From Haliotis rufescens (taxonomy: Eukaryota), in the NCBI RefSeq assembly GCF_023055435.1, contig NW_025964374.1:1116001-1180000 (forward strand): a DNA stretch of 64,000 nucleotides. The letters are read 5' to 3'. The first letter of the stretch is position 1. Each line of letters opens with the position of its first letter. Under the pieces are notes generated by a model that saw nothing but the letters and a program-made list of their open reading frames with translations, had not been told where the DNA came from and ran no database searches. A program made the translations under genes and the position numbers. This document shows, one piece after another, positions 16,213 to 39,675 of the stretch.

Positions 16213-16528
16213 TTAAATGGCATTTTGTGCCCCAACAATAGAAAGTTGATATCTAAACTACATAAAGTTAGATGTAAAAATGTTTGGTTAACTTGTGATA
16301 GGTCCATGTAGCCAAACAATGAAAAAATACAATTTGGCAAAAAGTGAAAAACACCTTCTTAGGTGAAATTGATGTTAGGGCTAAACAACATAATAAATTC
16401 CTGTTAAACTCAAATCACTGATTTTTTTTCAAATTGGTTATGAACAGTACTGTTTTAGTCAGTGACAATCTCTTGTTTCCAGCTTTGAGACCAAGCAATT
16501 CCTATGATTCACTCTATGCCTAGGGGTG

Positions 16529-16696
16529 GAGTGAGTGAGTGAGTATGGTTCTACGCCGCTTTTAGCAATATTCCAGCAATATCACGGCGGGGGACACCAG
16601 AAATGGGCTTGACACATTGTACCCATGTCGGGAATCGAACCCGGGTCTTCGGCGTGACGAGCGAACGCTTTAACCAGTAGGCTACCCGACCGCCCC
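16529..16696 (-). mobile_element. SINE family A, full length, young
   Basis: TSD CCTAGGGGTGGAG (16519-16531, 16696-16708). Near-consensus body. Confidence 0.95.
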
Positions 16697-17193
16697 CTAG
16701 GGGTGGAGACTGATGGTATTGTTATTGGTACAACTTATACCGTACATGATGTATAGTGACACGGACATTAGTAGATACCATCTCTTGTCTGGAGCCCACC
16801 GTCATGTATTCGTAAACACACAATATATTTCATATTTCGCCCATTGGCGCTAGGGTATACCATGATTGTATCTGATGTTTATTGCAGAAATAGTGGCCCA
16901 TCTGACACTGCGTCTACAGGTACAGACACATGTGTTTGTAGAAGTGGTAAAGTTGGTATGTTTCCGAAGCGGTATGCTCCATAGTAAACGTATACATGGC
17001 TGTTGGGGCTGATATCTAAGGCATCGGTGCCTGGAATGGTTTCGGTAAATGTATCACAGCAGAAGTTGAGATAATGGGTTCCATTTGGGGAAATGGAATG
17101 AAATTTAACAGGCCTTAGGGTCATGTTGTCTAGTGTGCAATAAGAAAGTACAGGTATGTATCCTGCAGTAGAGATAACAACCTCACAATTCTA

Positions 17194-17219
17194 TCATCAT
17201 CATCATCATCATCATCATC
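17194..17219. repeat. (CAT)n microsatellite
   Basis: About 8 units. Confidence 0.9.
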
Positions 17220-18680
17220 TAAAGAAGGACTTTATTGTTAAAATAGTGCAAACCAGTTTCACATCAAGACAAGACCAATTTGCTTCACATGTTTTACAAA
17301 GGAAACTTTCTTCCCAAACTTTGAAAAGTAAATAGTTTGATAAAATGCTTAAATTGCTTAAAGAAATACATTTGTGAAAATATATATTTGTTTTATATTT
17401 AAAGAAATTGGGTTTTTTGAAACCCCAAAAAATTGCTTAAAGAAAAACCTTTTTCTTCTGGCCTAAAACTCAATCAGCAGTTCAAGAGAATTTCTTTCAT
17501 CTTAATTTCCAGGAATACAGGAAATAAATCGAGCACACAAAGCACATTTGATGTATTATTTCAAGTTCTTGATACACGCTCATCTCCTCTGAAACTGAAG
17601 CTGTCTCCCTCATCCAGTTGAGCACATAGAAAATGACAGTGTTAAAAGCAAGCATGCAAATAATATCAAATATCCACATGCAAACTTCGTCTGTTTAATG
17701 TAAAGCCAGAACGAGACACTGTGGCTGTTGGCCATCTTTGATGTATACGGCCAATATTACCTAAACAGGTAATTGCGGATTAACATTTAAACAGCATTAC
17801 GATAATAATTGAACACACAATGCAGAACCTGCAAGACTATACGACTTGCACATTTCATGAACTGTGAATGGTTCGGAAAGCTACCGTTGTTTATTTAAGC
17901 TCCATAAAAGATTAATGGGGATCGGACATATTTGGATATCACTTACGAAACCCGATACCATGAACACACCAATTTTCCCATATTTACATTTACTCAACAA
18001 ATATGACCTAAGACCATATTTGATAATGGCTTAAAAGACATATGACAAGAAAAAAATCAATCTTGGGTAATTGGATGCTTGGGACATTCCAAGCCATGTC
18101 AAAGATGAATTCTGTGCAAATAATACTGGATTTAAGTTGGGTAAGATACTCGCTCAATTTCAACAAAAATATTGTTTTTCTTTCTTTTCAACAACAGTAG
18201 GTCATCGTGGCTTGTTTGGTCAGGTAGGGCATATCTAAGATAACATTTACTTTCACAACAAAATTGCATTATTCCTGTGTGTTTTAACTTATTTTCCCAT
18301 TACGACCAGTTTCATCTACAGCCGATAGGTTTTGTTGACATATTTTCATGGCAATTATTGGATTTAAGGTGTTGAATTTCTTCCTAGCAAGGAGTGCTGA
18401 ATGAAATTCCTATCTGCATGTATCAATGTTGCAGTTTACAGGTTTCAAATTAAATTTCTGAGGAAAGTATTTCTTAGGAGTAGTGCTCACAAACGCTGAC
18501 AACTTTTCTCCAGGTTTAATGACTATAATGAGGAATATATGAAGAAATGAATTGGTGTTGTATGTGTGTTTGTTATTGAACACTGTATTCAGAAAATATC
18601 CAGCTTTATCAAATCCGCTGTTAAATTGGCTCGACCAGACAATCAAGTGATTGATGTTACGAGCAATGTCCCATGGTTGC

Positions 18681-19398
18681 CCACATAAGAGGGTTACAGT
18701 GTATCATTTTTCTTCGGGATGTATAGTGTTTCTCACAGATTCCACATTAAGAGGGTTATCAACTTGCTTTGGGTGCACAGTCTTTCTCACAAGATCCACA
18801 TAAAGAAGGTAACAGTGTATCAACTTGTTTTGGGCAGGGTTTTACCTTGACAAAAGAGGGGGTCCAGGGGACCCCCAATGATTAATTTGAAGGGTCCTTG
18901 CAGTCAATATGAGGGTCCTGCAAAGTACTGTAATATGTATTGTACTGTACGTTTAGATAATTTGTAATGAATGAATGATCATGTGGACAGTGGTCATGAT
19001 TGATGGATGAATTGATAGACACCCATAAATGCTCTTGATACGCTGTAGGTACAATGAATACTGTAGGTCACTCGGGATGCAGTATATATTTTTCTGCATC
19101 CATTCTCTACATTGTGCGTACTGGATGCACATTTGTGCCTCACGTAAAAACCTGTTTGGGGTGCACAGTCTTTCTCACAGGGGTCCACATTAAGTGGGTT
19201 TAAGTGTATCAACTTTGTTTTGGGTTGCAGTCTTTCTTAAAGGGCTCCATATTAAGACGGTTAAAGTGTATCAACTTGGTTTTGGGGTGCAGTCTTTCTT
19301 ACATGGGTCCACATTAAGAAGGTTACAGTATATCAACTTGGTTTTGGGGTGGTCTTTCTTACAGGGATCCACATTAAGAAGGTTACAGTATATCAACT
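18681..19398. repeat. Minisatellite of about 58-60 bp, interrupted by a MITE
   Basis: Unit CCACATTAAGAAGGTTACAGTRTATCAACTTGGTTTTGGGGTGCAGTCTTTCTTACAGGGT, present at 18681-18834 and 19155-19398. Confidence 0.85.
18835..19154. mobile_element. CAGG-ended MITE (hAT/P-like)
   Basis: TIR CAGGGTTTTAC / GTAAAAACCTG (10 of 11 match). TTTGGG duplicated on both sides. Confidence 0.65.
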
Positions 19399-21658
19399 GA
19401 CTTCACAGTGTACACCAGCGAACCCCCCACCTATTTTCCCAAACCCTTCACTCAGACTTTGCTGTTAACTTTAACAACAAAATAATTACATTTTATACAG
19501 TTGCAGCAAGTAGCTGCTAGTATAATCCTACCGAAACCTCAGGTGTTGCTTGGAAATCCCAAATCCCTTGAAGCAGCCAGCGGCTTTAAAACACATTATG
19601 CATTGTGTTTGCAAATACCTGGAGTTTGTAGAACTGAGAGTCTATCAGTTACCTTGCCGGGGCCTGCTGATAGCAGTCATAGGCTTGACACCTTCACTGT
19701 CAGCTCTCTGACAAAGGGACTCGAAATTGGTGAAATCCTGCTTAGAATATGTCTCCAGTAACAAAGTTGTTGTAATAGCTCCTTGGAAGACTCTCAAGTC
19801 ATATGTGTCATTTTTTTAATTTTAGAATACAATTTCATACATCTGTATGGCAGTCAAATAAAAAAAATTGAAATTTTTCACATTCAGCCTTTTATTTTTT
19901 ATTTATTGGGTTACACTTTTCAGGGCCTAAAATTCACTGTAGGGGGGTGAAATATATTTTATTAATTTTTTTCAACTTCCACATTGGTACTGCTACTAAT
20001 AAACGAAAACAAAACATGTTGTAACATGCAAGATACCGAACGATAATTAATTTCTTTCTGTTAGAATAAAGATTTTTGTATGCATTATTCACCATTTTTT
20101 ATGAACAGTGGTGATAAAATCTTGTGTTTTATTCATGTGTCACCTAACTTTAAAACAGAGCTGGCCAAAAGTGTTTTTGTGAGCGATGAATTTCACATCT
20201 GAAATCTTTGTATATTCTACAAGGTAGACAAGGCCCTAGGCAACAAAAGGGAAAAAAAATCAGCAGACGACAATGTAACTTCTAAACAAGAACACCTTTC
20301 CTTGCAATTATACAGAGATGTCCCTGGCTGAACGTTGAGCAAAACTCGCCAGCAGACAAACACAGTCGGATATAGAGAAGACAAGACAAGATAGCAGTGA
20401 CCTGTGGATTGACCTGAATACAAATTTCTACCTGATCCTGCTTCTGTGTCACCCGACGAGATACAAACATACAATTGCAAGCGTTATATACAGTCACATT
20501 TGGCAGGCTTGATACTGCTCAAATTGTCCCTTCTACCACACAAGAAAATATGCCTTACCCCTAAGTATTGTCTATTACAATGAGGAGGTGTGGGTGAACG
20601 TTCTGTTGCAACAGAATAGCATTACATGGCTGAATTTTTGTTCCCCATGCCGTGAATATCTTGAAATCAATGACCATCAGATATGGACCATTTGAAGGCT
20701 TTAAACCTGGCTCAAGTTGAGTACTCGTGCGTTAAAAGATTTGTAAATGATTAAGATATCAGAATATTCCATCGTGTAGATAGGATTGAGGGAAAGATAG
20801 GACAAGAACTGGAGAAGCTCGGTCATAGGGTTACATATTTCTTGACACAGTTTCAATGAAGTCCATTGACAATTATGTTTTTGTCCACAAATCGTATCTC
20901 TAACAACTCGAATTTGGGTCTATTCATAACCGGCTCCTTCTAGTCATGAATGACCTTGAGATAAACATGATATATTGACTCAATGAATTCATTCAACTAA
21001 ACATATCACAACGGAGTGAGTACATTTTTCCGCAGTACACCTGGCCCATTGATAGTACATCATACAATTAACACTCTGTTCAAGCTGTTTGTAACACCTC
21101 ATTCATTTAATATACGGTTAAGCCACTCTTATTCACCTAAAAGCCAGCCTATCTGGAAAATATTTACCTTTTTGTTACAGTCTAACTGATATAATCACAT
21201 TATTAAAGTTGCTACTTATAGGAATGCCTGAGGGAAATCTAAACACCAGAAATGTCTAATTGGCTAATTGAAGCCTGACAGCCAAATGTTTAGAAGATTA
21301 CACTGAGAGGCCTAAGGGTTTGTATAAAGTCAACTGTGACAGAAATTCTCAAATAAGTTAGACATACATAAGACTTTCAACAATCAATGATAATTCACAT
21401 CTGCGCTTGTAAATATTGAAAAATCCAAAAGTAGAAATAGGTTGGTTTCAGGAAAGTAATCTCTTTAGGCAACCGACACAGTTTGCTCTCACTGCCCATT
21501 GTCCAGTGTATTGACCCATTTGGTTAACAGTATCAAGCTTTACAATTCTCACAACCTCTCAACCACAAAAACTAATCGGCCTCTACAGTAAGACATGGCT
21601 TTGTGAGGAGGCTTCGAGTTTGACACTCGGAAGAGGGTATGCCAGCTGAATACTAAAC

Positions 21659-21674
21659 CAGCGCCACCTGGTGG
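21659..21674 (-). promoter_or_regulatory. CTCF-like core motif
   Basis: Minus strand CCACCAGGTGGCGCTG closely matches the bilaterian CTCF consensus. Motif match only. Confidence 0.4.
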
Positions 21675-22548
21675 AGGTAAAGGGCCAACGAAGGTGTGAG
21701 AAACGGTGGTCGCGTTGAAAGGATTTGAAAGACTGTGGAAGGCTCGGAAGGCTTACAAGTGGTCAATATTCAAACTGTAAGCTAGAACTGTTCCTCCCAG
21801 AGGATACTATGACCTACTCAGTTGACGGTTTGAGTGGTTACATATCAAAGGAGGTAATTATAGGCGGGGAAAACGATCTTGTTCAACACAAGTACAAAAT
21901 TCATTCTTACTGGACACAATGTAGTACTGTAACCATATGGGAATAAGTATTCAGCCGATTGATGAAAATTGTGAAGACTTTTCACATATTTACGAAATGT
22001 GATAAAAATATTATCATTCACCCGAATCGGGTATAAAAATAAACAAAATCCCATTAAGATGTATATACGTGGAAGATATACATATATACATAAGTATATG
22101 AGTGTGCGCTAAGGATTTCACTGAATGATAGTCAGTTGGTGGGAGGGTAAGAGACTGTTCTTTACAATACTCGGTTTGTTCATAAATATTTTGTGTTTGA
22201 GTAGAACATATTTGTGAAGCATTTTTCAATATGGTCTGGTGGCTTGAAGCCATATCCAAATAATGACTGGCTTTCTTTACAAGGCACTGCTGTACCAGTA
22301 GAACAAGGCTATATTTGTCATGTGTGCCCAAATAATCCCACAATACAATAATCTGGAAAAAAGTATGTCATATTAATGATCTGACATAATGCTCAATATT
22401 GTTGTGTGTATTCAATATTTACCAACACAATTACAGAATGTCTTTAAATATTTAAACAACCATCAAAATTATTAATTAAAGACAAAAAAGTGTTCCAGTG
22501 GAGAAGACTGTGCTATTACATTATATTTTTCCTCAGTTTTCTGGGTAA

Positions 22549-22830
22549 TGAGTGAGTGAGTGAGTTGGGTTTAACGCCGCTTTTAACAGTATTCCAGTTA
22601 TATCGCGGCGTGTCAGCTTAATGTGGGAGGAAAGCGCCAAGTGATGCAGATCTCAGACGTTTACCACTTCGGTGAAACCCACGAGAATGGGTATGGTGCT
22701 GACAAACCTAGAAACATAATCGGGGCGAAGCAGGATTCGAACCCACAATCATAGGTTTCTGGCGTGCCAAAGGGACGCAACTCTGCACAGCGAATCACAG
22801 CACCTTAGACGACTGGGCAAACCGTGCCCG
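22549..22830 (-). mobile_element. SINE family C, full length
   Basis: 13-bp TSD TTCTGGGTAATGA (22539-22551, 22832-22844). Confidence 0.93.
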
Positions 22831-22853
22831 CTTCTGGGTAATGAACATAAGAA

Positions 22854-22954
22854 ACCAGAAATGGGCTTCACACATTGTACCCATGTCGGGATTCGAACCC
22901 GGGTCTTCGGCGTGACGAGCGAACGCTTTAACCACTAGGCTACCTGACCGCCCC
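22854..22954 (-). mobile_element. SINE family A, 5' half only
   Basis: tRNA head through CCCATTTCTGG. Tail missing. Confidence 0.9.
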
Positions 22955-23261
22955 TCCACTTAGTCTAGTCAATGAGGAGTACCATCATTGTGACCTCAGC
23001 ACAATTTAGTTGTCTCTGGCTAGCGGGCTAGCAGGCATTTCAAAGGTTAGTTGTTTGACACTTGGATATACTGATGGACTTCACGTTAATTGCATGAACA
23101 TTGGACTTCTAGTGTTGGAAGATGCTTGCAACCTCCAAATTCGCTGAAGCTGCAACATTGGTTTTTGAATTTTTCTACGGATTAGACTTGATGTGATCTG
23201 GATAATGTATTGAAACGACACACACAATGTTGAGCTCTATGGTAGAAGTGTCTGTACTCAC

Positions 23262-23333
23262 AGCCTCAGGAGGTTGGGCATGTTTGCAAACAGGTTATCC
23301 GGGGTAGACACAAGCAGGTTCCGGTCCAGGCGC
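23262..23333 (-). CDS. slit: Slit coding exon (likely exon 4), RLDRNLLVSTPDNLFANMPNLLR(L)
   Basis: 72-nt exon with acceptor tctgtgtttcAG and donor GTgagt, in frame (CT+G=Leu). Matches recalled Slit LRR3 ([24 protein letters not shown]). The preceding intron is 26,872 bp. Confidence 0.9.
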
Positions 23334-23574
23334 CTGAAACACAGAATCACAGATAGAATATAGAGACGTGTCACAAAATCACAGATACATGATACAGAGA
23401 CATCAAACACAAATTAGAAGTTGAACATTGGTGTAACCATAGCAATACTTTCAAACTCAGGCGACAGTAACAATGTCATAGTGAAACCATATAAGTCTGG
23501 AAACCCGGCAGAGTCTCCGTGGAGACACTGCCGTCTGGAAGATATGGTTGGAGCATATATTATATGCTTGTGTG

Positions 23575-24029
23575 TATTTTTGTTTAACGCTGCACTCAGC
23601 AATATTCTAGCTACATGACGGCGGCCAATAAATAAACGAGTTTGGACAATCCAGTGATTGGCATCGTGAGCAACGACCCACGCCATTGGGGTGCAATGAC
23701 ATACAATCAACCAAGTCACCTTGTAGACCACCTGATCATCACCTCTTACAACCAGCATAGGGTGATGGGGACCAATTCTAACATCCTCACAAGGATATAT
23801 ATATATAATATGTAAAAAAAGAGTATTATTACTCTTTGACAACGATTTGTTAATACAGACATCACAGGCTCGCTGACTTAGTTGATGCATGTCATCGTAT
23901 CCCAATTGCATGGATCGATGCTCATGATATCAATCACTGGATTGTCTTGTCCAGGCTCGATTATTTACAGACTGCCGTCATATAGCTGGAATATTGCTGA
24001 GTGCGGCGTTTAACAACAAACAAACAAAC
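23575..24029. mobile_element. Head-to-head pair of SINE family B copies
   Basis: Decayed minus copy at about 23575-23795 and plus copy at about 23865-24029 with (AAAC)n tail. Confidence 0.82.
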
Positions 24030-24043
24030 ATCAGTGGGAACAG

Positions 24044-24205
24044 TGGGCGGTTGGGTAGCCTAGTGGTTAAAGCGTTTGCTCGTCACGCCGAAGACCCGGG
24101 TTCGATTCCCGACATGGGTACAATGTCTGAAGCCCATTTCTGGTGTCCCCCGCCGTGATATTGCTGGAATATTGCTAAAAGCGGTGTAAAACCATACTCA
24201 CTCAC
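24044..24205 (+). mobile_element. SINE family A, full length
   Basis: 13-bp TSD TCAGTGGGAACAG (24031-24043, 24206-24218). Confidence 0.95.
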
Positions 24206-24430
24206 TCAGTGGGAACAGCATAGTCTGGATAAACAGGGTGTCACTGTACCATATTTTCTTGTGTATAATGTGCAACCTCCAAAATTTGGAATATGTTTCA
24301 TTGGTGAAATCTTTTGGAGGAAGCAAAGAGAATTTGGTCACTCTGAGGCACAAATAATTAATTTGTTGCACTAACTGTTTTCAATGTAAAACTTGTGGGT
24401 TAATACATCAGAGACAAGGAACATGTTTTA

Positions 24431-24580
24431 CTGGTAGAGCAGGCAGGCTTACCCTTGCCTGCATTTCAGTGATCCATTCATATAATTTTCATCATTTAGC
24501 ATCTTTTACGCCCAATGGAATATATTTTCGGCAGATAATCAGGACTGATTACTCCCTGGCAGTGATGTTTTATATTTACT
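24431..24580 (+). repeat. Dispersed repeat family D
   Basis: GGTAGAGCAGG..CTTACCC..TTCAGTGATCCAT..GGCAGATAATC, shared with the copies at 30265-30630, 34168-34350, 55605-55708 and 61290-61730. Confidence 0.75.
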
Positions 24581-25244
24581 GAGACAAGCCTGCATGTACA
24601 AGGAATGCATGTACAAGGAACGTAGGTACGAGGAACGTAAGTACAAGGAACGCATGTCTGAGGAACCCACGTGAAGCTCTGTATATTGTTGTAGCATTCG
24701 GGAATCAAAGCTTCATAAATATTGTGGAACATCCATCTTCTACACAGGACATTTAGTTCTGTAATGCTGAACTTTTGGCCAGCTTTGAAGTTGTCTTACA
24801 CAAGGAAATCAGAGTGGGGGGTAATAATGTTGTTTAGGGATGGAACCGTGATAACAACACTCTGTTGTCAAGTTCATAGTTTCTGGGACGAAAAGAACAT
24901 TGACGATGCAAGAAAAGCCACAAAAGAGTTCTTTCCGTACATGTCATTAGGAGACTGGGAAAACTGAATATAAACTATACGATGCATGTTTAGTCTGTTG
25001 GAGATTTCTATTGTTAGAATCAGAACATGCCTCATGATTTCTACACTAGCTGATAAAGGGCACATGTTTCTTTGAATAACATTTGTTTTCTGTGCAGTTC
25101 GTAAGTTGTTGTAAGGCTAAATGTGTTGTGAAAAAAATATGATATCTGTTAAAAGTGGTGGTCGTAACACATACAAAGAAATGTCTTGTATGATAAACCT
25201 TATTTCATTATCTGTAGATGAAAGCGACAACACCTATTCCATAA

Positions 25245-25470
25245 TCATAAAAAAGGTTTGCTAAAAGCAGAACCCACTGTATGGCTCTGACTTTAAATGT
25301 AACAAAATGTCAAAGCAAATGTCGAAAAAAACTTAGGTTGTATACTCCCCAGGGAGCTGAGAATGATTCTTGAGTGCACACTGATCCAGTGAACGGAGTA
25401 AAAATAGCGCTTTGAGCATGCCCCTGAGTGGTGTCGAAAAAGCGCAGTATAAATGGCATATCATAAAAAG
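25245..25470 (+). mobile_element. L2/CR1-type 3' end (LINE or L2-tailed SINE fragment)
   Basis: TGTATACTCCCCAGGGAGCTGAG ... AGCGCTTTGAGCA ... AAAAGCGCAGTATAAATG resembles the conserved L2 3' stem-loop. Confidence 0.45.
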
Positions 25471-26077
25471 AAGTACAGAAGTTAAAATTCTTTTGCAAAA
25501 ATTAATTTTTTTATCGCTTAAATGTCTGAACGTGAATATAATATAGTTGAAGCAATACAAAATTAATATCAATAATAAGAATTTGGTAAGAAAACCAAAC
25601 GACAGGAACTGGGTACATAAAACTCGGATGGATATAAAATTCATCATCGCAGCAATAAAACCAAAAGCATGTAACCTGATTAAAATCTGTTTATGACCAA
25701 AGTGATATTACCATGTCTTTCATCTTGTTAATTCAAGCAACTACATTTAACACAGAGGTAATTACTTGTCTCATGTTTTCATAATCTCAAATCAGAAAAA
25801 AAGCCAGATTTATTTCTTTGTGGCCAAGAAGGTCAGCAGCAGTGTAATCAAGACATTCTTATAGCACAATAAATTACAAAAACTCTTAAGGACATGTGCA
25901 ATATGCTGGAAAACAACACTGGGAAGTTAATGCTATACACCATGTGCACTGTTTATCTCACAATCTAATTGTATTTATGACACTGACAATGAACAAGTTG
26001 CTATCTAAAGTAATGTTGATGTCTTTTTGTTTAACAACCAGCACCAGATGCAACTTGCAGACCTTGCAGCAATCACT

Positions 26078-26980
26078 TTTTTGTTTGTTTGTTGATTAGC
26101 ACTGCACTAAGCAATATTCCAGCTATCTGACCACCATCTCTAAAAAGTCGAGTCTGGGCCTGACAATCCAGTGATTGACATAATGAGCATCCTTCTACGC
26201 AGTTGGGATAAGATGACATGCAATGAACCAAGCCACCATCCCGACCACCACATCCTTGTTTGTTTGTTGTTTAAATCCACACTCAGCAATATTTCAGCTA
26301 TATGATGGCGGTCTGTAAACAATCGAGTTTGGACCAGACAATCCAGTGATTTACATCATGAGCATCGATCTATCCAATTGGGATACGATGACATGCATCA
26401 ACCAAATCAGCAAGCCTGACCACCCGATCACGTTAGTTGCCTCTTACGACAAGCATAGTCATGTTTTATGGCAAGCATGGGTTGCTTAAGACCTATTCTA
26501 CCCCGGATCATCACGGTTAAGTTTGGATAAGATGACATGCAATCACCCAAGCCTAAATCCTGACCGCCGGATCCACTTAGTTGGATCCTCTTTTACAATC
26601 AGGTTGCTGGGGACGCATATTCCTACCCGGATCCCTGGGGTTTAGTGGTGAAAGTATTATTGTGTCAAATTAAAAATCAAAGATGATTGCACCTTACAAA
26701 TAAACTAATCATCTTGACTAGGTTGTTTGAGATTAACAACTTGATTGTTTGTTTGCCGGTTGTTTAACATCATTCTCAGCAATATATCCAGCTATATGAC
26801 AATGGTCAGTAAAAAATTGACTCTGGACCAGATAATCCAGTTATTAACATCATAAGCATGGATATACACATTTGGAATCGGATGACATGCATCAACCTAT
26901 TTAGTGAGCCTGACCACCCAATTCCAGTCCTTCCAACAAGCATGGATTGTTGAAGACCAATTCTAAGCTGGATCTTGACT
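26078..26980 (-). mobile_element. Cluster of nested or tandem SINE family B copies
   Basis: Minus-strand copies at about 26078-26255, 26257-26517 (full length), 26520-26640 and 26745-26980. Confidence 0.85.
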
Positions 26981-27735
26981 GAGACTTGATTGAAGTCATG
27001 ATGCTCATGGCCTAAGTATACAGGTAAATTATTGAACACAAAAACATTACAAGTAGTCATTTGATTTGACTTTTCTCAGGGTCAATACCTTCAACATGTT
27101 CAACAGCCCTGGTAGAAACTTGTTGGTGTTTACAGGTTCAGTACTCTTGACAAAATTCATTATCAAAAGATATATTTGGTGTACTTGAAGGTAAATGGTT
27201 TGGACACAAAGGGTTACAGAAACGCTCACAATATTCTTTACATTCAGGCAGACCTTGTGACGGTCGTTACAATATCAGCACCAGATTCAATATGGACTAT
27301 TGGGAGGAATCATATCTTTGTATTAGCAGTGGGACTTACATAGACTCCATGATGCGTTTCGGTAAGACTTGTAATATCTGGCCATACAGGTCAGAAAATT
27401 CATTGACAACGACAAGAATGTTTCAGAAACACATTGTCCAAAATAATTAATTCTGACGATCTCGTCAACGTGCATGATGACGTGGAACGAGATTGAATCC
27501 ATAAAATGGACAGTGCTCCCTGAACTGTAAAGGAATGCAGGGAAACACAGAGAAATGAAACCAACTGATGTTTGACTGAGCGACATTCTGACACAAGCGT
27601 GATCCATTCAGCAGTTTGTTCCCTCGCCGCTTCATTGACAGCAAAGAACAGCCCATCGATCTAGTTAATCTGAAATCTATCAACACTAAGAGACGGCTGA
27701 AGTGACTCGCATATCGACAACAAATACTGTGATTT

Positions 27736-27880
27736 CATTACCTCGGCGAAACACCATCACAATCCTTCGCATCTATGCAAGCTCTGACAAAGAGCATAAT
27801 ATCGCTGAGCGAGAAGTTGGCTTTTCAGCAGTCATACCTCGCCAAAATGGCGGCTTCTGGTTAATGACTTGAACCGAAAT
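27736..27880 (-). promoter_or_regulatory. Putative internal promoter or short non-coding first exon inside slit intron 3
   Basis: The minus strand reads GCCGCCATTTTG (YY1 consensus, 27854-27843) followed closely by GAG|GTATGA (GT at 27837-27836). A second donor CGAG|GTAATG has GT at 27741-27740. The site sits at the edge of the CpG-depleted domain. Confidence 0.5.
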
Positions 27881-28807
27881 TATTTATCACATGATAATTA
27901 CAAAAGCAGTTGTCAAAGAGTTCAGTTATTGAACATAACTATGGAAATAATGGATTAATGGTCTGAATTATCAGGCAGTCTGATTGTGTGGAATAATATC
28001 ATTTATTTAACGCCGAGGATTATATCTGTCATGGGGTTCGTTGATGACATCAACTAAAAATATAATTGCGATGTGCGCCGTACCTTTATAACAAACTACA
28101 AGAGTCGACGAAGAATCGAAAAGTCCACTTCCAATATATTTCAGGGCATTAGCCTAGTTTACAATGAACTTGGTCTGTAATGACCCACCCGGGTTAGGAT
28201 CTGTCTGCTCGTGATGTCATTCACTGGATTGAGTGGTCGAGATTATTTAAAGACCGCCGTCATGCGGCTTGAATATTACTGAGGGCGGCGTTGAACAAAA
28301 AAACAAATCAAAGTAACGACCGGTACGTGCCATACACTCTAACCGTAGCCTCGCATTATAACACATAATATAATTAATATCACATTAATTACACTGCCGT
28401 GACAAAGCGGGCTCTACGAGACAATTACTTGTGTAAACCCACCACGGGTCTGCATTTCTATTTCAAGGTTCACTGGCCTTACGCGATTTTTCTGAAGCAA
28501 ATTAAGCTACAATTGTCGTCTGCTTCACCTTTGCGTTTTGGGACACTTAAACTCCGAGGTTTTACAGATTCTGTTTGGCTTATGTCCACATCCTGATGAT
28601 GTCTGCTGGACCTTACTGGACAACATGGAAAACGCCCCACAATTACAACGTGGTTGTTTTGCTTCAAGGAATCAACACTCGTTCGGTGGTTCAAAAGCGT
28701 TCGTCAACAGATGCGCAACGACGTATCTGAGCCAGTTATGAAGCTGGTGCTTCATCTTCGAAACGAAACTGTCAAGAACCTGCGCAATCGCAGATTTGTA
28801 CTGGGCC

Positions 28808-28999
28808 TAATCTTTGATACAGACCCTGAAACAAATATATCTAATACATCCCATGCAAGTCTATAATTGTGGGCAAGTCTAGATTACTGTTTCAGGGAAG
28901 CGAGTCTCTGGGCTCCTTTTTATTACATTTTGTTAAGATAATTTAACAACTGTTTTTTACTGTAAAATATGTTCATTTCAGAGACTAGATGCTAGTCTA
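28808..28999 (+). mobile_element. AcademH-type MITE, subfamily F
   Basis: Ends AGACTAGATGCTAGTCTA. 9-bp TSD TACTGGGCC/TAGTGGGCC. Confidence 0.83.
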
Positions 29000-29003
29000 T
29001 AGT

Positions 29004-29108
29004 GGGCCTCTTTTACAATTCTATAAGTGCTGCAACAGTCATAAGTTTATGTTAAAGCATAGAAGTTACGATCGTTTTAGGCTGAGGTCGCTTTGTGGAA
29101 CGGGGCCC
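29004..29108. mobile_element. PIF/Harbinger-like MITE (about 105 bp)
   Basis: Termini GGGCC...GCTTTGTGGAACGGGGCCC. Homologous to 33123-33231 and 53815-53922. Confidence 0.6.
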
Positions 29109-30025
29109 ATCCGATTTTACTATCGGACAACTACTCTCACTAATACAAGTTTTAGTTAACAAAATGCCAATATCAATGTACATTTCTAGAGAAGTAATGA
29201 CGCGTCCTATATCAGCCCGTCACGCCTCCCCCTCTGACAGCCCCAACGTTAACAGTTTCACCAGACGGGGAAATCCCAAAGTACCCAAGCCTTCCTCGTT
29301 GTTTAAATAAGCTTGCAAATACTGCAAGTCAGGTTCCATTGAACAGGTGAACAAATACGCAGGCTACTTATCCACGTTCCCGGCAAAAGTACGTCATGTT
29401 GACGCCCTGAACTGGCACATCATAACATGGGCTGTCATTAATAAGGAGTTTATGTCTGTTCCGATTCCCTTCTCCATTCAAACTTAGGCAACCTTAAGAA
29501 CTGATTGCGTCCACAAGCCATAGATCGCAAGTTTAAAAGGGTAATTTCGACACGGATGAACGAGTAGATATAAAATTCATGGCCTCTCCGTTACCGCATG
29601 TGTCAAAATCAGTTTGTGGATATCTCGCGATAGTTTGGGAGAACTAGTTGTCTACATTGTGTTGAAGTGCTGGGTTGATCATAGCGTCATACATTCACGT
29701 TGTTGACAAGTGAACTCTGAGACATGCGGAGGTATAGCGGTTTACAGTTCTTGTGGGGAAATACTTGAAATGCCATGGATTAGAGTCCTGGCGAGACAAC
29801 TATGAAATGTAAAGAGATAGCACATCTCAGACCTTTGATTAATTTCCTTTGAATCGAGACGACTACAAGGAGAAATTGAAATATAAGCGTGAAGTCTAAT
29901 TTTCGGACTTAGTTACAAGTCAAAGCTCATTAAGGATTATATGCAGGCCGACACCATGTGGAGATAATACAAGAGTATATATGTGGTGGCACGTGGTCAC
30001 AAATCAGGCGAAGTTAAGCAGCGTT

Positions 30026-30187
30026 GGGGGCGGTCGGGTAGCCTAGTGGTTAAAGCGTTCGCTCGTCACGCCGAAGACCCGTGTTCGATTCCCGACATGG
30101 GTACAATGTGTGAAACCCATTTCTGGTGTCCCCCGCCGTGATCTTGCTGGAATATTGCTATAGCGGCGTAGAACAATACCCACTCAC
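30026..30187 (+). mobile_element. SINE family A, full length
   Basis: TSD TAAGCAGCGTTGG (30015-30027, 30188-30200). Confidence 0.95.
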
Positions 30188-30264
30188 TAAGCAGCGTTGG
30201 TCGTGAAGAGTTGTCATGGAGTTGAACTAGCGTTCTTTACAAACATTTACTTTTTCATGCAAAT

Positions 30265-30630
30265 CGTGTGAGTGGCAGGTTCTTCCGGTAGAGCAGGACT
30301 TTCTTACCCTTTTCAGGAACAGTTGATGTCGTCACTGTGAGTGTGTTTTACGCCGCTTTTAGCAATATTCCAGCAATATCATAGCGGGAGACACCAGAAA
30401 TGGGTTTCACACATTGAAACCATCTGGGGAATCGAACCCGGGCTTCGGCGTGACGAGCGAACGCTTTCCCATTAGGCTACCACACCGTCCCGGTGTCGTC
30501 ACTGATATTCAGTGATCCATCCATATACTTTTCACTGCTGTTTTGCCTTTTGCGTACAATGGAATCTGTTTCGGCAGATAATCGAGACTGATTGTTCTCT
30601 GTCGCTGAGGATTTATATTTTGTACAGCTG
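30265..30630 (+). repeat. Family D copy interrupted by a minus-strand family A SINE (30338-30493)
   Basis: SINE TSD TGTCGTCACTG (30327-30337, 30494-30504). Removing the SINE restores the D consensus. Confidence 0.85.
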
Positions 30631-31159
30631 CAGATTGATGTACGAAACAGTTGTTGAATCGAAGGCCATACATATGTTAGTTATTTTACAAAATAGTATA
30701 ACCCAAACTGAATCAGGTCAGATTATGACCCACGTACCCATACACCATGCAAACATCAATTTCAATGAACATCGGGTGGTTCCGTTTTGATGACGAATCA
30801 ACTCTTCAGTAAAAATAAGTGACAAACCCTTTCCATTTTCAATAAATAACTCTCTGCCAAAATCAGAGTCGATTGTACGATAGCATGTGGCTATGACTCA
30901 CGATCAATGGTGATGATACCAGCCGTTCGCGAAAAGGAGAGCGTATCCTTCCCCATCGGTGGCACCCACCACAAACACAAGCAAAGGCAAGTAAATTGTT
31001 CACCAACTGTTCACGAGTAAGTGAGTGAGTTGGTTTAAGAAGGAACCCAAAGTGATGCAGTCATTTTGTCGAAGTTGGTAAGTTGTATTGTAGTTTTCCC
31101 GAGTTCATGTTACACCCCTGTTATTATCACTACTCTGTATTCGACACACACGTGTAAAT

Positions 31160-31317
31160 GGGGCGGTGGCGTAGCCTAGTAGGTTAAGCGTTCGCTCGTC
31201 ACACCGAAGACCGGGGTTCGATTCCACACATAGTGCAATGCGTGAAGCCCATTTCTGGTATCCCCTGCCGTGATATTGCTGGAATATTGCTAAAAGCGGC
31301 GTAAAACTATACTCACA
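31160..31317 (+). mobile_element. SINE family A
   Basis: Diverged full-length copy. Confidence 0.88.
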
Positions 31318-31956
31318 GATGTATAACATTTCTATTTCCCTTTCCTATGTGCAACATACTTCGGCCATTTTCGTATGCACACATGGGGTTGGAATTCTAA
31401 TCCAGAAGCTGCCACTATTGTTATGCATCATACTAAATAGGCTAATCATAACTGACAATAACCATTGCGATAGGCCCGGATGTGGATTGTTATGGTCGCA
31501 CTTTGAAGAGGGCATCGCATGGCGTCAAAGTTGAACTATTTGATGTCTAATGGCGTTAATGACAGACCCTGGGCGAGAATAATCGCCATCAGCAGGCGGC
31601 AGGTTCACAGACACATCATATTACATAAATGTATAAATGACCCTTGATGTACAGTTGAATATGTAGATGGTGCAAACTAGATCCAAGGTTCACAGAGGTT
31701 GTGTTCTGTTCGAGTAAATTACAATAACGATGCTCCGACTACTCAAACCGCCACGACATACACCGGCCATGAGATAATTTCGTAATAATGTCATATAATC
31801 CAGAATAATCGCTGGTCATTACATTACAAGGGGTAGGAATTAACCTGGCAAGTATACCAGCCTAAATAGCGATACCATGTAAGAACCGCCACCAAGGATA
31901 TACCATTATACCATTGGATAAGGATACAAGGATATAACTTTGATTCGCATCCCTTT

Positions 31957-32110
31957 CATCATTCGTCACAACTCGTCCCTTTTCGTAACCTGCAAGAAGT
32001 CAATACGTCACCACTCGCTCCTTTCCTTAACCTGCAAGAAGACTCGTCCCCATATCGTGAATGTTATCATTCGTCACCACTCGCCCCTTTCCGTAACCTG
32101 CAAGAAGATT
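31957..32110. repeat. Three degenerate units of about 43 bp
   Basis: TCATTCGTCACCACTCG..TTTCCGTAACCTGCAAGAAG occurs three times. Confidence 0.8.
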
Positions 32111-33122
32111 CGCTATTCGGCTTGTCCCGGAATAAAACGAGATGTCACGAATGTTCTTTCATATCAACGTATTATCCAATTTGGCTTAGTGACGCAGAAA
32201 TTTTTATTTGTATTCACACAAAGGCTGCATTTATTGCTACTGTCAGACAGACCCCACCAATACATTCCGTGCATATACTCATAGGTAGAGGTGAACGCAT
32301 GTAGGTTAGTGCCGCAGTCAGCATTCTTGCTCAATCATGGCCTTCATAGGTAATAACAGAAAATAGCATACATTCCTCAACAGCGATTTCATCTAATATA
32401 TATCATCAGATTCAGTCTGTTCACACGACAACATTCAGGCGAGTTATCATTCAACAGTTTCAGCCGAATCGAGTCAAAAAGTCTACCCTTAAGAAGTTCG
32501 ATACTTATCGTTGGTAAAGATGGAAATAAGATATTTCCACATCTCGCAATAAATGTCAAGGAATTCAAGCAAATGTCACCGTACGGGTATCAAACAGACA
32601 AATTCAGTCCAGATATAATCTCGATACACTGCTCTGTCATCTCGTTCGAATATCCTCGCAACTACATGATGAATGAGGACTGTTATTGAAGACGCTTGCA
32701 GAGTGTCGCCAACACGCGTAGTAATACATCTAAATAGCGGAGGGATATCGCGGTTACGCCACCTGGTGATTGATGATCGAGTTAGGCAGTGACTGTCTAC
32801 TAGGAAAACAGACGGCGTAACCATCCAGTCCATCAAGAACTGGGCGCAGTCTATAGAGAAATCACACACCCTTTGTCCCTCGGCCTGTCAACATTGTTAC
32901 TTACCCTATTAAACTGGTGATTTATGTTACAGTGTATTGGGTAGGAAGCCCTGGCAAGAAATCTAGCAGTCATCCGAATTTCCTTCGGTTTGCTTAACTC
33001 TGGCATCTGAGAGTAGCTGGTTTAGAATTTCCGTTGTTTTATTGGTTACTCGTTGACTTAAGGAAGGCTGTTTCCGGTACTTATACACCATTGTCGCCAT
33101 CAGATGCGCATCATTATGTCCT

Positions 33123-33231
33123 GGGCCCTGTTCGACATAGCCACCTTAGCGTTAAGGTGATCGTAACTCCCATACTTTAACACTGGCTTACGATAGTCGT
33201 AGCGCTAAGATTGTTTTGTGGAACGGTGCCC
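33123..33231. mobile_element. PIF/Harbinger-like MITE
   Basis: TIR-like ends GGGCCCTGTTC / GAACGGTGCCC and a partly palindromic interior. Confidence 0.6.
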
Positions 33232-34167
33232 TTGACGATTTGAGTTGAGTGATGAGAACACGTCCGACGCACTATAGAACTATCTCAGTTATGTTTCGTA
33301 ATTAAATATTTAAGTGTCATGGAAGATCGGGACCGATTCTCAAAATGCGTAAAACGAAATGAATTCACTTGTAAACTTGCATATGTCATAGATACAGGTC
33401 TTTGATGCTGGTTCGAAGTAAATACTAATATTTTACGCAGTCTGCAGCCGTTCCTCAACAATGAACGTGAATGTTCATTGGACCTCTTACCACAATCTGT
33501 TCTTGCAACGGAATCGTCGGGTTATGGTGTCTCTGTTGAATTCACAGAAGCACACACTGTCAGCGTACCCCGATGACGTGGATCGCTGCTCATGCTATCA
33601 ACCACTAGTAGGCCCTACCCGAATACTTACAGGCACGGCAGCCGGAATATTGTGTTTTCTGGCATTAAATTGTTCTCACCACCTTTAATACAATTCAACA
33701 TCAGTAAAACCTTTTCTAAATCATTCAGTTGGCAAATCTTGCCTTTCAACCCAGCGAAGACCAGTCGACAGAAACGATATTGGCTGTCACTCCCCGCGCC
33801 AACAGACCAATAACAGACACCTGCTCTTAACTCCCGGGGGAAGTCTGTGCAACTTCAAACTCTTGACCGGTCACCGATAAGATATAATACTAACGAGATA
33901 CACCGCCTTACCATCGCTCTAAAGATATGCCAGCATTGCAAACACCGTCGGTAGATTCTCCAACATACACAGTTTCAGCGAGTAACGAAGTGGTCACCCA
34001 TTTTCACCGCGTGGTCAGACAACGGCTATGCACAACACGCATACTTACGATGCCATAACGGTTGCCCATCACTGAGCGTCTGGTCAAGACTCGATTGCTT
34101 ACGTAGGCCGCCGTCTAATGGCCGAGTACTGTTGTCAGGCGACAATGCTTACTTTTTTATGTACATG

Positions 34168-34350
34168 GTGTGAGTGGCGGGTGCTACTGGTAGGGCGGGA
34201 CAGGGCATGCTTACCCTTTTCGCAAACACCTGGTGTCACCACTGATTTTCAGTGATCCATTGATACTTTTCACCGCTATTTTGACGCTATTTTACGTTCT
34301 GTTCTGTAGATAATCGAGACTGATTATTCTTTGGCGTTTTATATTGTAGT
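34168..34350 (+). repeat. Dispersed repeat family D
   Basis: GCATGCTTACCCTTTTCGCAAACACCTGGTGTCACCACTGATTTTCAGTGATCC core. Confidence 0.8.
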
Positions 34351-35315
34351 AACTCCGACGTAGGCCTGGATTTTCGTTTACTTGGCACACACCCAGAAGG
34401 AGTATGTACACACATGCAACACTACCAACAAAAATGTGTTAACGAAGATATTCATTCTGACACAGACTGCCAAGCGAAGACACAGACAGCCTAAATTTCT
34501 GATTCGTGGCTAAAAAAATGTATTTCTATTCCGCCCCATTACTGGCCTAGTTTCGTAATGGCGACCTCGATAGCTGACGCCGTACTCATAAAAGCCCTTT
34601 TTAATCCGTTAAAATGGGCACAGACTGTGAAACAAAAGCTGGGGGATGGAAGGCAATCCCCCTATGTTGCAAGTGACGCGTTACAAGCACCTAATAGCTG
34701 TTCCAGTGGAAGATCTTTATCGAGTAACTCGTTAAGATGGCTAATCAGAAGGCTGACAGCACGTGCAGCGCGTGCAACCATGGCTCGTCTACAAGGATGT
34801 ATGAGAACTGTTCTTTGATTGCTATCTGCATGTCCATCTAATAAAGCCATCTCTGCAATGCCTGGGTCGACTTGTGATCCAGTATCTGTAACGCCGTTGT
34901 AAACAACACCTTCGCCATCGTCGACAAGGAACGCTACATTTTCAGTACAGAACAACGACGGTCAACCGGAACACGATGTATACAACTTTTACACTCGTAG
35001 ACACAATGCCAAGCCTTAGCGCCCGATAACGGTGAACAGATGAAATGATAACTTAAAGATTCAATCTTAATAAAAGAGTATCTCGTAAAGCAATAGTCTC
35101 GTCGGTTTGCGACAGGTTTTAGTACACTAATTTTCTGGCCTCTGGCTTCTGGTTGAACGCTGGTGCGGACTACTTGCGTAGAGGGCCAAGTTCATCACCG
35201 AAATAGCAACCGAATCTCGCAGTCACACGTCGGTATGCAATGGGTTAAGTACCATGGCATCTCATCCCTGCCAGACACAGTCCCGAGGGGGGGGGGGGGG
35301 GGAGACCGGGTGCGA

Positions 35316-35487
35316 TAGACTTGCACAAATCTCTAAGGTAGGCAATAATTATTACTTCAAATCATAATTTCTAGTTATGATAAGAACAAGTTGTCCCAAA
35401 ATGAGACTGGAATCCTTACTGTCCACACATCTAGACTTACTACACATCCATGGACGTATCTTTTAGTACAGCCTAGGCGCAAGGCTA
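35316..35487 (+). mobile_element. AcademH-type MITE, subfamily G
   Basis: TAGACTTGCAC...CAAGGCTA with degenerate 9-bp TSD CGGGTGCGA/GGGGTACGA. Confidence 0.75.
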
Positions 35488-35684
35488 GGGGTACGATTAC
35501 ATCGGATCCATGGATTGGTTCAACTTTCAAAATCACATATTGATCCCTATGATATATACAATAAGTTATACGCTAGTGTTATTGAAATGAACGTGTAAAT
35601 TAAATAAAAAGCAAGAAAGTCAAGCAATCCGTATCGCCTTCCATCAAGCCCTTGTGGCTGAGAATTCAATATTTGACACACACC

Positions 35685-35908
35685 TAGTCCTGCGCCATGA
35701 CTGTGGAATATATGTATTTTAAACAAGTACATGCATTTCTTAACAAACCAATCTATTAGCAGATCCTTATTTAAGCAAGTCTAGCCAGTTTCGGACAACT
35801 CTTTTCCACAATAAAATGAAATCAGAATAAGAAAAAATCATTGTTTCTTCTTTAGAGGAGAGAAATGTATTGTGTAATAAAATATTTCATAGCCAATATG
35901 TTAAACTA
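35685..35908 (+). mobile_element. AcademH-type MITE (subfamily shared with 38976-39173)
   Basis: TAGTCCTGC...CTA with perfect 9-bp TSD ACACACACC. Confidence 0.82.
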
Positions 35909-36261
35909 ACACACACCCTCCTCAAAACATCCTGTTTCCACCTCTGGTAACAAGGGGGTTTGGGCTACCACTGATAGGTTGTCCTCGCCTGTTTATTCCG
36001 AATGAGCGTGTTTAGTAACAGGGATACACTGGTATTTAAACACATGCGTGTACATGTCTGGCGGAAGGGAAGTGTTTCTCTTCTACAGTACAAGATGAGT
36101 AGTGTGGCCGCTATGTTGTCATTTCGACGGCGTGGATCATTACTGGACCGAACTGGACCGAACTGGACCATATTCCATAACTTACGGTTGCCGCGATATA
36201 ACTGTGGTATTGCTGCCTGTGTCATCGAACAAACATTCACCGAAGTCTTTCTCTGCATTGG

Positions 36262-36515
36262 TGAGTGAGTGACTTTGGTTTAATGCTGATTAAAACAATA
36301 TTTCCGTTCTATCACGCGTGTCGTCTTAATGTAGGAGGAAAACCCGAAGTGATGCAGGTCTCAGACGATTACCACCTTGGTGAAACCCATGAGCACGGGT
36401 ATGGTGCTGACAAACCTAGAAACATAATCGGGGCGAACCGGGATTCAAACCCACAATCATAGGTATCTGACACGTCTATGGGACGCAATTTGAGCCTTAG
36501 ACGACTTGGCCGTTC
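36262..36515 (-). mobile_element. SINE family C, diverged
   Basis: Aligns to 10853-11132. CpGs largely retained. Confidence 0.88.
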
Positions 36516-38975
36516 CCTTAGCATGAAGTAACGTAGGTTGTACAGAAGTCACCATCTTTAGCAATATCAGTAATCGGTCGAATCACCGATTACCCCTTCA
36601 TCGAAAGAAAAGAAAAGAACGGTGTCTGTACCATATTTTCCTATTTATCGCATCTACCAGCCCATTATTACAACATAATATGACACAATATCCCTCATGT
36701 TATCTTCACATGAATAAGAAAAATGTTAAAAATCTTGAACATTTGCGTGACACACAAGGAATTTGCCCGTGGAACTTCTTCACGCGTGGTGTCATCGCGC
36801 TTCTAAACAGCCTCCCTAACAAAGGCAATTATAAACGTTTCCATGAATCAAGGGCGAATCCCAAGACTCAAATCTCACTCGACAATGTTTCATGTCCCCT
36901 TGTAAACTTCAAGTATTCCCTCAAGAAAAAAATATCGACCATCTTGCAAATAAGGCATAGCCTTTCTTGATCCATAAGTCAAAATTAACGTTTTTTCTTT
37001 GAAAGTAAACACATGAGGTCTACACGCACGCCATAGAGACGACAAAGAGGCTACACTGCATTAGCAAGCAGCCAACTGTCAACCTGTCTATTGTGGAGTC
37101 TCACACAGCTCAAACTCCGTTATCCAAAGCCCCAGAGGGTTCTAAAGCGATATCTGACGAACAAAAAATTAGAAATTCTCTCATCAAATCTGACGTTGCT
37201 AACTAGGAAAAACTATATTTTAAAAAGTTGAAATCTGGCCTCTCGGTTGAAACTAGCGTGAGTATGTACATTGCAGAATGTCTACATTAAATATGTAAAT
37301 AAATCGTCAGCGAAATTATATGAATATTGCATGTATTTTGAAAGTGAAAAGAAATTCTACAGCTTCACAATTTTTTTGTTTTGTTAAAGTAAACATCCTT
37401 CAGTTATATTTAGTTCATTATCAATGATCTTCTTCAGTCAAAACATTTTTAGAAATGATCCACGCATAATTATTATTATCATCATCATTGTAAACAGCCT
37501 CCATATCGCTATCTACTAGTATTAATGAAATCTTGAGGGTTTATATGCTCAGCAAACATGAACACCATAAAATTAAATATTACACAATATCCACACGAAG
37601 TCATGCTGCAAAAAGTGCAGCAGTGGCGCCTTTGAGCAAATTCGTAACATCTAACAATATACAGGAGCACTTGCCGGGTCGCTGGACCACTTAAAGGCGG
37701 GTTCAGCGCCTTGCACGTATTGTCAGCTTGTCAGATCCTTCTGCCTTCAGACGGAGTCTAACAACGCCGGCTACCATATGCCTAAAATTACCAGCATACA
37801 TATTTTATGAGGTTTGAAATTTTATTGACATCTTTTTTTATCAAGAACAAAGCTTACAGATAGTGGAAAGGACGATTTGATAACGACCAACTGTCGCCAT
37901 TTTTATTATCCGATTGTCGTTCCGACATGCATGTCTTTCAAAGAAATCTACTCATGCAGTAAGATTCAATTTAATTTTCAAAAGTCATCTGTTTTATTTA
38001 ATACAATAATTCACAACGAAATACAATTCAGAGTACGTATTGAAAATGTAAAAGTTGGGAGTTCACCAAATAAAAGCTGAAATCAACTATGACCAAAGGA
38101 ATTCAATTACAAGTTGACAGTGATTATACTGAAACTTATATTTCCCCAGGCAGTGTGTTGCTTGTAATAGCAAGAAACCTAAGATGCCTTTAAAAGGCAG
38201 TTAAATAAATCCGCTAATCCCCCTTAATGTCATCTCACCGTCTTTATTATATCTTTAATAACACTGGATCAAGATATGGATTATGATAACGCTGTAGCCA
38301 CAGTTTAAAAACAGCCTCTGTCATCCACATAAAAGGTCAGCGATATTGGACTCCATGAGGAGTATACATCGTCCTCCAAGTCAAAACAAATGACGGACGG
38401 CAGGCCCTCTCGAGAAGTGACAGGGGCACCATAAGTGATAAGAGAAGGGCAGGAGTATATCGATTAGAGGTCATTAAAGCTAATATGAAAAGCGAGGGTC
38501 AGAGGGCATATCCTTGACTTAACACTCCATGGTGCGTGCTCTCTGCTGCTTCTCGCCTATTGAACGTTTTGATGAGGATTACTGAGCGCCGAGCTTAGAT
38601 ACTGATGATTGTATTGTGACCATTATGACTAGTGTCTAGGACGTCAGTGACACCGTGGGGAAACGATAGGGGGATTCCAATCCAACGTTAATCGCAACGA
38701 GAGACGGACATCCAGCCTTCTTATTATGGTGAATAGCATGTTGGGGCGATACTCATCACTTGTAGAGAGATGGGTTTATAGCTTGTTCAATGACCCTGTA
38801 GTTATCTCTCCGAAGGCCGACTGACAACATGAAAAGACTAATTTAAAGTTTTCAATGACTTCTAGGTAGACTGGCCACTTCATGGAGGAGACCTGTTATA
38901 GAGGTCGGGGTAGTCTTCTCCTTCAGATGCAGGCCGGGATGCTGCAGCTGTGGGAGAGACTGGCCGGTCACTTTG

Positions 38976-39173
38976 TAGACTAACATTTAGTCTCTGAAAT
39001 CTTATATTACACAATATCCTTCTTGACTCTAAAAATAAATTTTTTTCCCTATGCTGATTTCTGATTCTGTGGAATAGAGCTAGCTTGAGCTGGCTAGACT
39101 TGCTTTTGTATGCATTTCTAGATTATTATTTTTTCATAAAATAAATATATTCCACGGTCATGGTGCAGGACTA
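38976..39173 (-). mobile_element. AcademH-type MITE
   Basis: TAGACTAACATTTAGTCT...GCAGGACTA with perfect 9-bp TSD GTCACTTTG (38967-38975, 39174-39182). Confidence 0.87.
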
Positions 39174-39417
39174 GTCACTTTGGTGTCAGCGGAGTGGTGA
39201 TGGATGGAGCACTCTATGCTGTTTGTAAAGGGTGGGGCTACTTGCATAGTAGGCATGGGTGGGTGATTTTCGAAAGTTGTGGACGCATTCTCTATAACAG
39301 TCTTTCTGCAATAACCAACCTTCTCTTATAAACGTTTTGTCCAGGAAGATTTATAATGTAATCCTTCAGTGTAATATGGGTTCCACGCGGTAGGCATTTC
39401 TCATAGTGAGTGCAGTA

Positions 39418-39675
39418 TTTCCGTGGTTTAGTGGACAGAGCTTCCCGAAGAGCAGAAGGTGGGTGATTCGATCCCCGGCCGCGTCACACAAAAAGACATT
39501 AAAATGGTCCTTGTTACCCTGCCTGGCGTCGGCATTATGAACATAAAACAAGGACTGGTCGGCTGGGAGTATACTGTGTCTCAGTGAGGTATCCATGTTT
39601 CACTAAGGCATGATATTTTAGCTAGCTAGCACTACAAAACCGGCATCAGTCCGGATTAGTACAAGCAGTCACACT
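39418..39675 (+). mobile_element. SINE family E (tRNA head plus Meta/MESC-like core), diverged
   Basis: CAAAAAGACATTAAAATGGT...CCCTGCCTGGCGTCGGCATTA core shared with 52102-52455. Confidence 0.8.

Follow-up and report, generated by a model that had tools for sequence, protein, structure and literature searches.

Within intron 3 of the abalone slit gene, CpG content changes abruptly at a single edge, and this step is real. We tentatively favour the view that the edge is the 5′ border of a domain methylated in the germline, set by a weak or germline-restricted promoter firing on the minus strand at ~27.87–27.95 kb, though our confidence in this falls somewhat short of even. A chromatin boundary at the same site is a close rival that explains the edge almost as well. 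The likelihoods expressed throughout are our own judgement, and the promoter and the boundary can both hold.

We analysed a window of 64,000 nucleotides – the whole stretch of Haliotis rufescens DNA considered here. Haliotis slit lies on the minus strand, and its exons 2, 3 and 4, each a leucine-rich-repeat (LRR) exon of 72 nt, fall inside the window; we looked there for exons 1 and 5 as well and did not find them.

52836..52907, minus strand: slit exon 2, residues 68–91
50206..50277, minus strand: slit exon 3, residues 92–115
23262..23333, minus strand: slit exon 4, 72 nt, LRR, Slit residues 116–139, with an in-frame ATG at 23,281 (Met133)

The translation of these exons equals residues 68–139 of the H. 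cracherodii and H. rufescens Slit proteins without a difference, and H. asinina Slit differs at two residues, both in exon 3. Because the exons run 52,907–52,836, 50,277–50,206 and 23,333–23,262, the CpG edge and the YY1 site described below lie within slit intron 3, which spans 27 kb, with exon 4 starting 4.5 kb further downstream; a preliminary description made from the sequence had placed them in this intron. We also observed four minisatellite arrays in slit introns 1 and 3, at 52,949–53,636, 54,107–54,496, 45,099–45,530 and 59,608–60,226, with periods of 23, 40, 34 and 8, respectively; the 23-mer array starts ~40 bp upstream of exon 2.

The preliminary description had put a sharp CpG boundary at ~27.3 kb, citing 0 CpG in 14101–14400 and 18 in 33901–34140. 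Both counts are exact, and the boundary was recovered as a single sharp change-point.

27089..27625, no strand: CpG change-point (3-log-likelihood interval), best estimate 27,355; the edge of the inferred germline-methylated domain on its left
1..27354, no strand: CpG-depleted domain covering the 3′ end of intron 3, exon 4 and the start of intron 4; CpG observed/expected (o/e) in unique DNA 0.38; continues to the window edge
27355..64000, no strand: CpG-intact domain covering slit introns 1–3 and exons 2–3; CpG o/e in unique DNA 0.90

The maximum-likelihood position, 27,355 (3-log-likelihood interval 27,089–27,625), was unchanged when we used a C-to-G measure or a CpG versus GpC measure. CpG o/e was 0.45 to the left of the edge and 0.89 to the right in all DNA, and 0.385 versus 0.90 in unique DNA lying outside self-BLAST repeats. 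TpG and CpA were o/e 1.33 and 1.36 on the left versus 1.18 and 1.16 on the right. The step has a log-likelihood of 150, compared with 34 for the best of the permuted sets, and none of 2000 permutations of 500-bp blocks matched it. No second significant step was found within either side (107 of 1000 and 287 of 1000 permutations). The two domains also differ in self-BLAST repeat share (17% of the left versus 31% of the right) and in the GC content of unique DNA (0.36 versus 0.42).

Repeats shared by the two sides provide a control in place. An older SINE family has lost CpG to TpG or CpA at 29 of 54 left-side sites, compared with 7 of 53 right-side ones (Fisher p 1e-5, with sites that are not independent of one another). 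A per-copy comparison of seven left with seven right copies gave the same direction (Mann–Whitney p 6e-4); it was drawn from 17 copies, with two left copies that had fewer than four scored sites dropped and a right tandem duplicate counted once. Divergence outside CpG modestly exceeded that of the right-side copies in those on the left (0.12 versus 0.08), a gap too small to account for a fourfold difference in decay. Two copies flanking the edge illustrate the pattern:

26764..26979, no strand: copy of the older SINE immediately left of the edge; all 9 scored CpG sites decayed, non-CpG divergence 0.14
28206..28292, no strand: copy of the same family immediately right of the edge; all 4 CpG kept, non-CpG divergence 0.15

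Since CpG decay in the older copies depends on the side on which they lie, the left side has probably long been methylated in the germline, with methylation acting in place. With CpG used as a proxy, the SINE decay thus supports the earlier attribution of the step to methylation. It also means that the CpG decay of SINE copies, read from the DNA sequence alone, can place the edge of germline methylation to ~1 kb. Copies of a young tRNA-derived SINE, decayed at 4 of 44 sites on the left versus 6 of 75 on the right, are too recent to show decay. Four left copies of this tRNA-derived family (8,465–8,632, 16,526–16,699, 22,851–22,954 and 24,042–24,208) are 94–97% alike, versus 86–90% for seven right copies; the youngest insertions thus sit on the side that is presumably methylated. 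In a comparison of sequencing run X3 with the window, 6 of 18 transitions picked by hand among those listed, all on the left side, involve CpG.

On the intact side of the edge, we confirmed the position of the YY1 motif that the preliminary description had reported. The minus strand reads GCCGCCATTTTGGCGAG/GTATGA, in which the YY1 motif occupies 27,854–27,843 and the slash marks a candidate exon end at 27,838.

27843..27854, minus strand: extended YY1-type motif GCCGCCATTTTG, the sole exact GCCGCCATNTT in the window
27860..28005, minus strand: AT-rich stretch just upstream of the YY1 motif, GC 0.29, 1 CpG
27832..27838, minus strand: candidate donor 1, exon end 27,838; score at chance level; unspliced in contig 24 of run X2
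27736..27742, minus strand: candidate donor 2, CGAG/GTAATG, exon end 27,742, 96 nt past donor 1

The motif lies ~500 bp (230–770 bp) onto the CpG-intact side. Its 10–11-mer forms are expected 0.001–0.004 times per kb of one strand, for a motif chosen after it had been seen. The short YY1 core GCCATBTTB, a consensus taken from a supplementary table row, showed no enrichment in the window, with 9 occurrences observed versus 5.9 expected and 14 of 100 shuffles reaching 9. Near the abalone site, NRF1 and ETS motifs were found as weak hexamer matches only. The AT-rich stretch is a candidate nucleosome-depleted region and start site, judging from its composition. At 27,860 there is a step in GC content larger than at 98% of 1,521 unique right-side positions.

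We also observed a second YY1-type cluster, at 15,260–15,481 on the minus strand within the CpG-poor domain. It holds two copies of the 12-mer with one mismatch each (15.27–15.48 kb) and two further, weaker GCCAT sites read by eye, and may be an enhancer, a loop anchor or a Polycomb-type element. Because these two near-matches lie within the depleted domain, YY1-type sites need not be promoters.

The splice donors proposed earlier lie where described (27,838 and 27,742), but their scores do not rise above chance. Scored with a generic matrix, minus-strand GT sites as good as the two donors occur once per ~1,200 and ~900 bp, that is, about once per kb. The proposal that MPNLLRL would be the first in-frame start holds for one donor and fails for the other. 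Joined to exon 4, donor 27,838 gives the ATG at 23,281 (Met133), as proposed; donor 27,742 has an ATG at 27,797 in frame with exon 4, which adds 19 codons without a hydrophobic stretch. An in-frame start downstream of a putative new first exon is therefore present for both donors (23,281 and 27,797).

The arrangement of these elements matches the internal minus-strand promoter that had been proposed. The motif lies 230–770 bp onto the intact side, the AT-rich stretch lies upstream of it on the minus strand, and the GC step is in the top 2%. Under the general invertebrate model, H3K36me3 laid down during elongation recruits DNMT3 from ~0.5 kb downstream of a start site. PWWP targeting is named in the part of a Nematostella study that we draw on (PMC13345969). 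Applied to this locus, YY1, which is predicted to bind, and the AT-rich stretch would hold the start site open and unmethylated; Pol II would travel leftwards from ~27.87–27.95 kb; and elongation-coupled H3K36me3 would bring DNMT3 to the DNA from ~0.5 kb downstream, while the developmental 5′ half of slit would remain unmethylated. The most natural RNA product would be one spliced from 27,838 into exon 4, evidently too rare or too restricted to be represented among annotated Haliotis proteins. In favour of such a promoter we further count the exon-4 starts of Pomacea Slit models (below), the single sharp step, the rarity of the YY1 motif and the minus-strand skew. Against it we count donors at chance level, the unspliced contig 24, a left–right skew difference that includes zero, a motif selected post hoc, the absence of exon-4 starts from 13 Haliotis isoforms, the near-matches at 15.27–15.48 kb and the weakness of the NRF1 and ETS matches.

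Evidence on transcription came from contigs of four of 22 runs, aligned over 13,600–30,000: X1, X2 and X12, whose status as RNA is a guess, and X3, which is probably DNA judging by its size. The alignment is swamped by SINE contigs, and contigs cannot reveal transcription starts. Eight of the listed run rows match part of 27,000–28,200; none is recorded as RNA, which is evidence neither way. All 15 of the joints listed, out of 5,449, fall within or between SINE copies, and none of these 15 supports a spliced first exon. Contig 24 of run X2, whose RNA status is a guess, aligns without a gap over 27,765–27,965, unspliced across donor 1 and reaching ~110 nt upstream of the YY1 motif; pre-mRNA or DNA would account for it no less well than any other source. 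A ubiquitous and well-expressed transcript, as suggested earlier, thus gains no support, the sole listed RNA-like contig at the site being unspliced across donor 1. A contig-depth bound of ~6 for a short first exon in X2 was set aside because depth cannot rank gene parts.

Elsewhere in the alignment, the RNA-like runs X1, X2 and X12 have zero cover in the bins 13,600–14,146 and 29,463–30,000. Across the start of intron 4 (20,600–23,300), the RNA-like runs have a tiling of unspliced contigs at low depth, a pattern to be expected of nascent slit RNA or of DNA; comparable contigs occur at several points in this intron. At 18,077–18,369, contigs of X1 and X2 match with 0 differences over 222 and 293 nt, whereas the X3 contig there shows 23 over 1,405 nt; this is possibly a conserved intronic element. 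Metagenome scans returned 0 matches to a 30-mer from the site, and none of 587 candidates was confirmed for exon 4.

Strand asymmetry gave a complementary view. The T>A skew of the minus strand is 0.046 (95% interval 0.028–0.063) on the left versus 0.023 (0.002–0.043) on the right, and the interval for the difference, −0.003 to 0.050, includes zero. Skew reaches 0.076 in 23.3–27.35 kb and favours the minus strand throughout the left side.

We searched against Pfam for the nested coding gene that had been offered as an alternative, using 188 frames of at least 45 aa in 1–28,400, drawn from 250 non-repeat stop-free frames of at least 40 aa. No frame reached the cut-off, and no coding exon was recognised to the left of the edge; the search likewise failed to pick up the genuine slit exon 4 frame, so the test is weak for short exons. 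The most promising plus-strand frame, at 15,020–15,334, was considered as coding and rejected, as it matched only three repeat proteins at 24–38% identity, which are artefacts of summed repeats. Rfam returned only tRNA-like SINE heads (one of eight matches with E <0.01) and two weak matches far below the family cut-off, and so gave no evidence at cut-off for a miRNA or snoRNA host.

Splicing from the site into exon 4 would have a consequence for the Slit protein. A gastropod-conserved germline YY1 promoter of this kind would yield a Slit of ~1,340 aa without a signal peptide, a combination that we consider unlikely. The product, itself a doubtful one, would lack the start of LRR domain 1 and keep domain D2, the domain by which Slit binds Robo. 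For a secreted guidance cue such a form would be unexpected, if it is made at all; an intracellular Slit, if true, would account for the Pomacea models as well as for methylation across the 3′ half of slit.

The annotated proteins lend no support to the isoform without a signal peptide that the preliminary description had envisaged. None of 13 Haliotis RefSeq Slit isoforms from three species starts at exon 4, and all 13 have the full signal peptide; a 14th member of the cluster is an internal fragment of 180 aa. These isoforms (XP_071091195.1 and relatives) vary only internally or near the C-terminus, and none is without the signal peptide. Among eight other gastropods, 14 of 16 RefSeq-type models are full length and two start inside exon 4; the two are both of the Pomacea canaliculata RefSeq isoforms (XP_025093491.1 and XP_025093492.1), each beginning at a Met inside exon 4. 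Slit models from a bivalve, nemerteans and a brachiopod are full length in all eight cases. The Pomacea author model also lacks exons 1–3, and two of nine author models (Lottia and Nucella) begin only at exon 5. Annotation thus appears commonly to cut the gene short where its 5′ introns are long, and the Pomacea exon-4 starts are possibly an instance of this artefact. A weak search for short N-terminal Slit pieces gave two among 141 candidates, none named Pomacea or Haliotis, and the open-access literature held nothing relevant on a mollusc slit isoform without a signal peptide or on nested genes there. Separately, the annotation of each of the three Haliotis species includes a 1,397-aa isoform from which 79 residues of the EGF region are missing, and isoforms shortened by 75–80 aa are listed in several other molluscs.

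The strongest competitor to an internal promoter is an insulator or loop anchor at the YY1 site, which we regard as a substantial possibility. It would bound an unmethylated, probably Polycomb-type domain over at least 37 kb of the slit 5′ half, and the 3′ half would be methylated through elongation of full-length slit. A new transcript would then be unnecessary. In annelids, enrichment of YY1-like motifs is seen at TAD boundaries and loop anchors, and these lie mainly in introns according to the parts of that study used here (10.64898/2026.05.18.725834). The 0 of 13 truncated Haliotis isoforms, the unspliced contig and the further YY1-type sites at 15.27–15.48 kb all fit a boundary. It does, however, require that full-length slit be transcribed in the germline and that a domain of at least 37 kb be protected, both of which are presumed, and the AT-rich stretch, the GC step and the adjacent donor look like parts of a promoter. 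Were the motif near the edge by chance, some other cause, such as clustered enhancers or the fading out of a Polycomb domain, would have set the edge; with 10–20 candidate promoter motifs to choose from, we estimate a ~1–5% rate of a match within 1 kb, and the short core is not enriched. We nonetheless think this improbable, the motif being the sole exact 11-mer in the window and coinciding with a top-2% GC step.

The depleted domain might instead be the body of a plus-strand housekeeping gene antisense to slit and ending at ~26–27.3 kb, with YY1 incidental. Antisense overlap would easily span slit exon 4, plus-strand AATAAA signals occur at 25,654, 25,868 and 26,699, and repeat contigs hid that stretch in the alignment. 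This alternative, which the preliminary description had also raised, is argued against by the strand skew, which shows no reversal and keeps its minus-strand sign all along the left side (0.076 in 23.3–27.35 kb); in addition, none of 86 plus-strand frames reached the Pfam cut-off, and the frame at 15,020–15,334 matched repeat proteins only. We judge such a gene to have little likelihood. An assembly join, raised earlier as well, or a large recent one-sided insertion is very unlikely. Although none of the X3 contigs in the 32 alignment rows listed bridges 27,355, the window contains no N, exons 2, 3 and 4 keep their order across the step, the two sides share a SINE family of similar age, 27,000–28,200 is unique in the window, and X3 covers the bin 27,275–27,821.

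Invertebrates may draw the edges of methylated domains by transcription from promoters or by boundary elements, and this locus is a clean test case for the two. It has one sharp edge and a single YY1 site, and a promoter and an insulator there predict different CAGE and Micro-C results.

The closest known system is the mosaic gene-body methylation of Ciona intestinalis. In the parts of that work on which we draw, methylated domains have sharp edges, whether a repeat is methylated depends on where it lies, the 5′ edge is likely shaped by promoters, and a transgene was unmethylated to ~1 kb past its transcription start site (PMC3827831). The abalone locus shares the sharp edge, the position-dependent repeats and the use of CpG depletion as a proxy. 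Unlike the Ciona domains, its edge lies deep in a developmental gene, more than 37 kb from the annotated first exon, and has no annotated gene start. In a mussel, CpG o/e tracks gene-body methylation (rho −0.62; 10.1101/2025.08.27.672726), and another abalone, Haliotis discus hannai, is reported to methylate its gene bodies (PMC8277243).

For the YY1 element there are two sets of precedents, each drawn from portions of the studies concerned. YY1 motifs are enriched in the unmethylated regions (UMRs) of annelid promoters (PMC11292947), are plotted at ubiquitous promoters in amphioxus (PMC6292497) and, in Nematostella, mark together with NFY motifs those latent intragenic starts that become open once methylation has been taken away (PMC13345969). 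Like the amphioxus and annelid promoters, the abalone site has an extended YY1 motif in CpG-intact DNA, and its upstream AT-rich stretch and the donor just downstream are also promoter-like; unlike them, it has no strong NRF1 or ETS companion and is known from sequence alone. In annelids, a YY1-like motif is also found at TAD boundaries and loop anchors, including 46.5% of Owenia boundaries; these boundaries are mainly intronic (47–59%), and in Capitella those with YY1 are enriched for developmental genes. The parts covered of that study (10.64898/2026.05.18.725834) make no link to methylation edges. The abalone site resembles these boundaries in that its YY1 motif lies in an intron of a developmental gene, where chromatin state changes; the annelid boundaries are defined by contact maps, whereas the abalone site is read from the DNA of a mollusc. 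The abalone edge is thus a further example of mosaic-methylation edges that carry a YY1 element, and is unusual in lying so far within a developmental gene.
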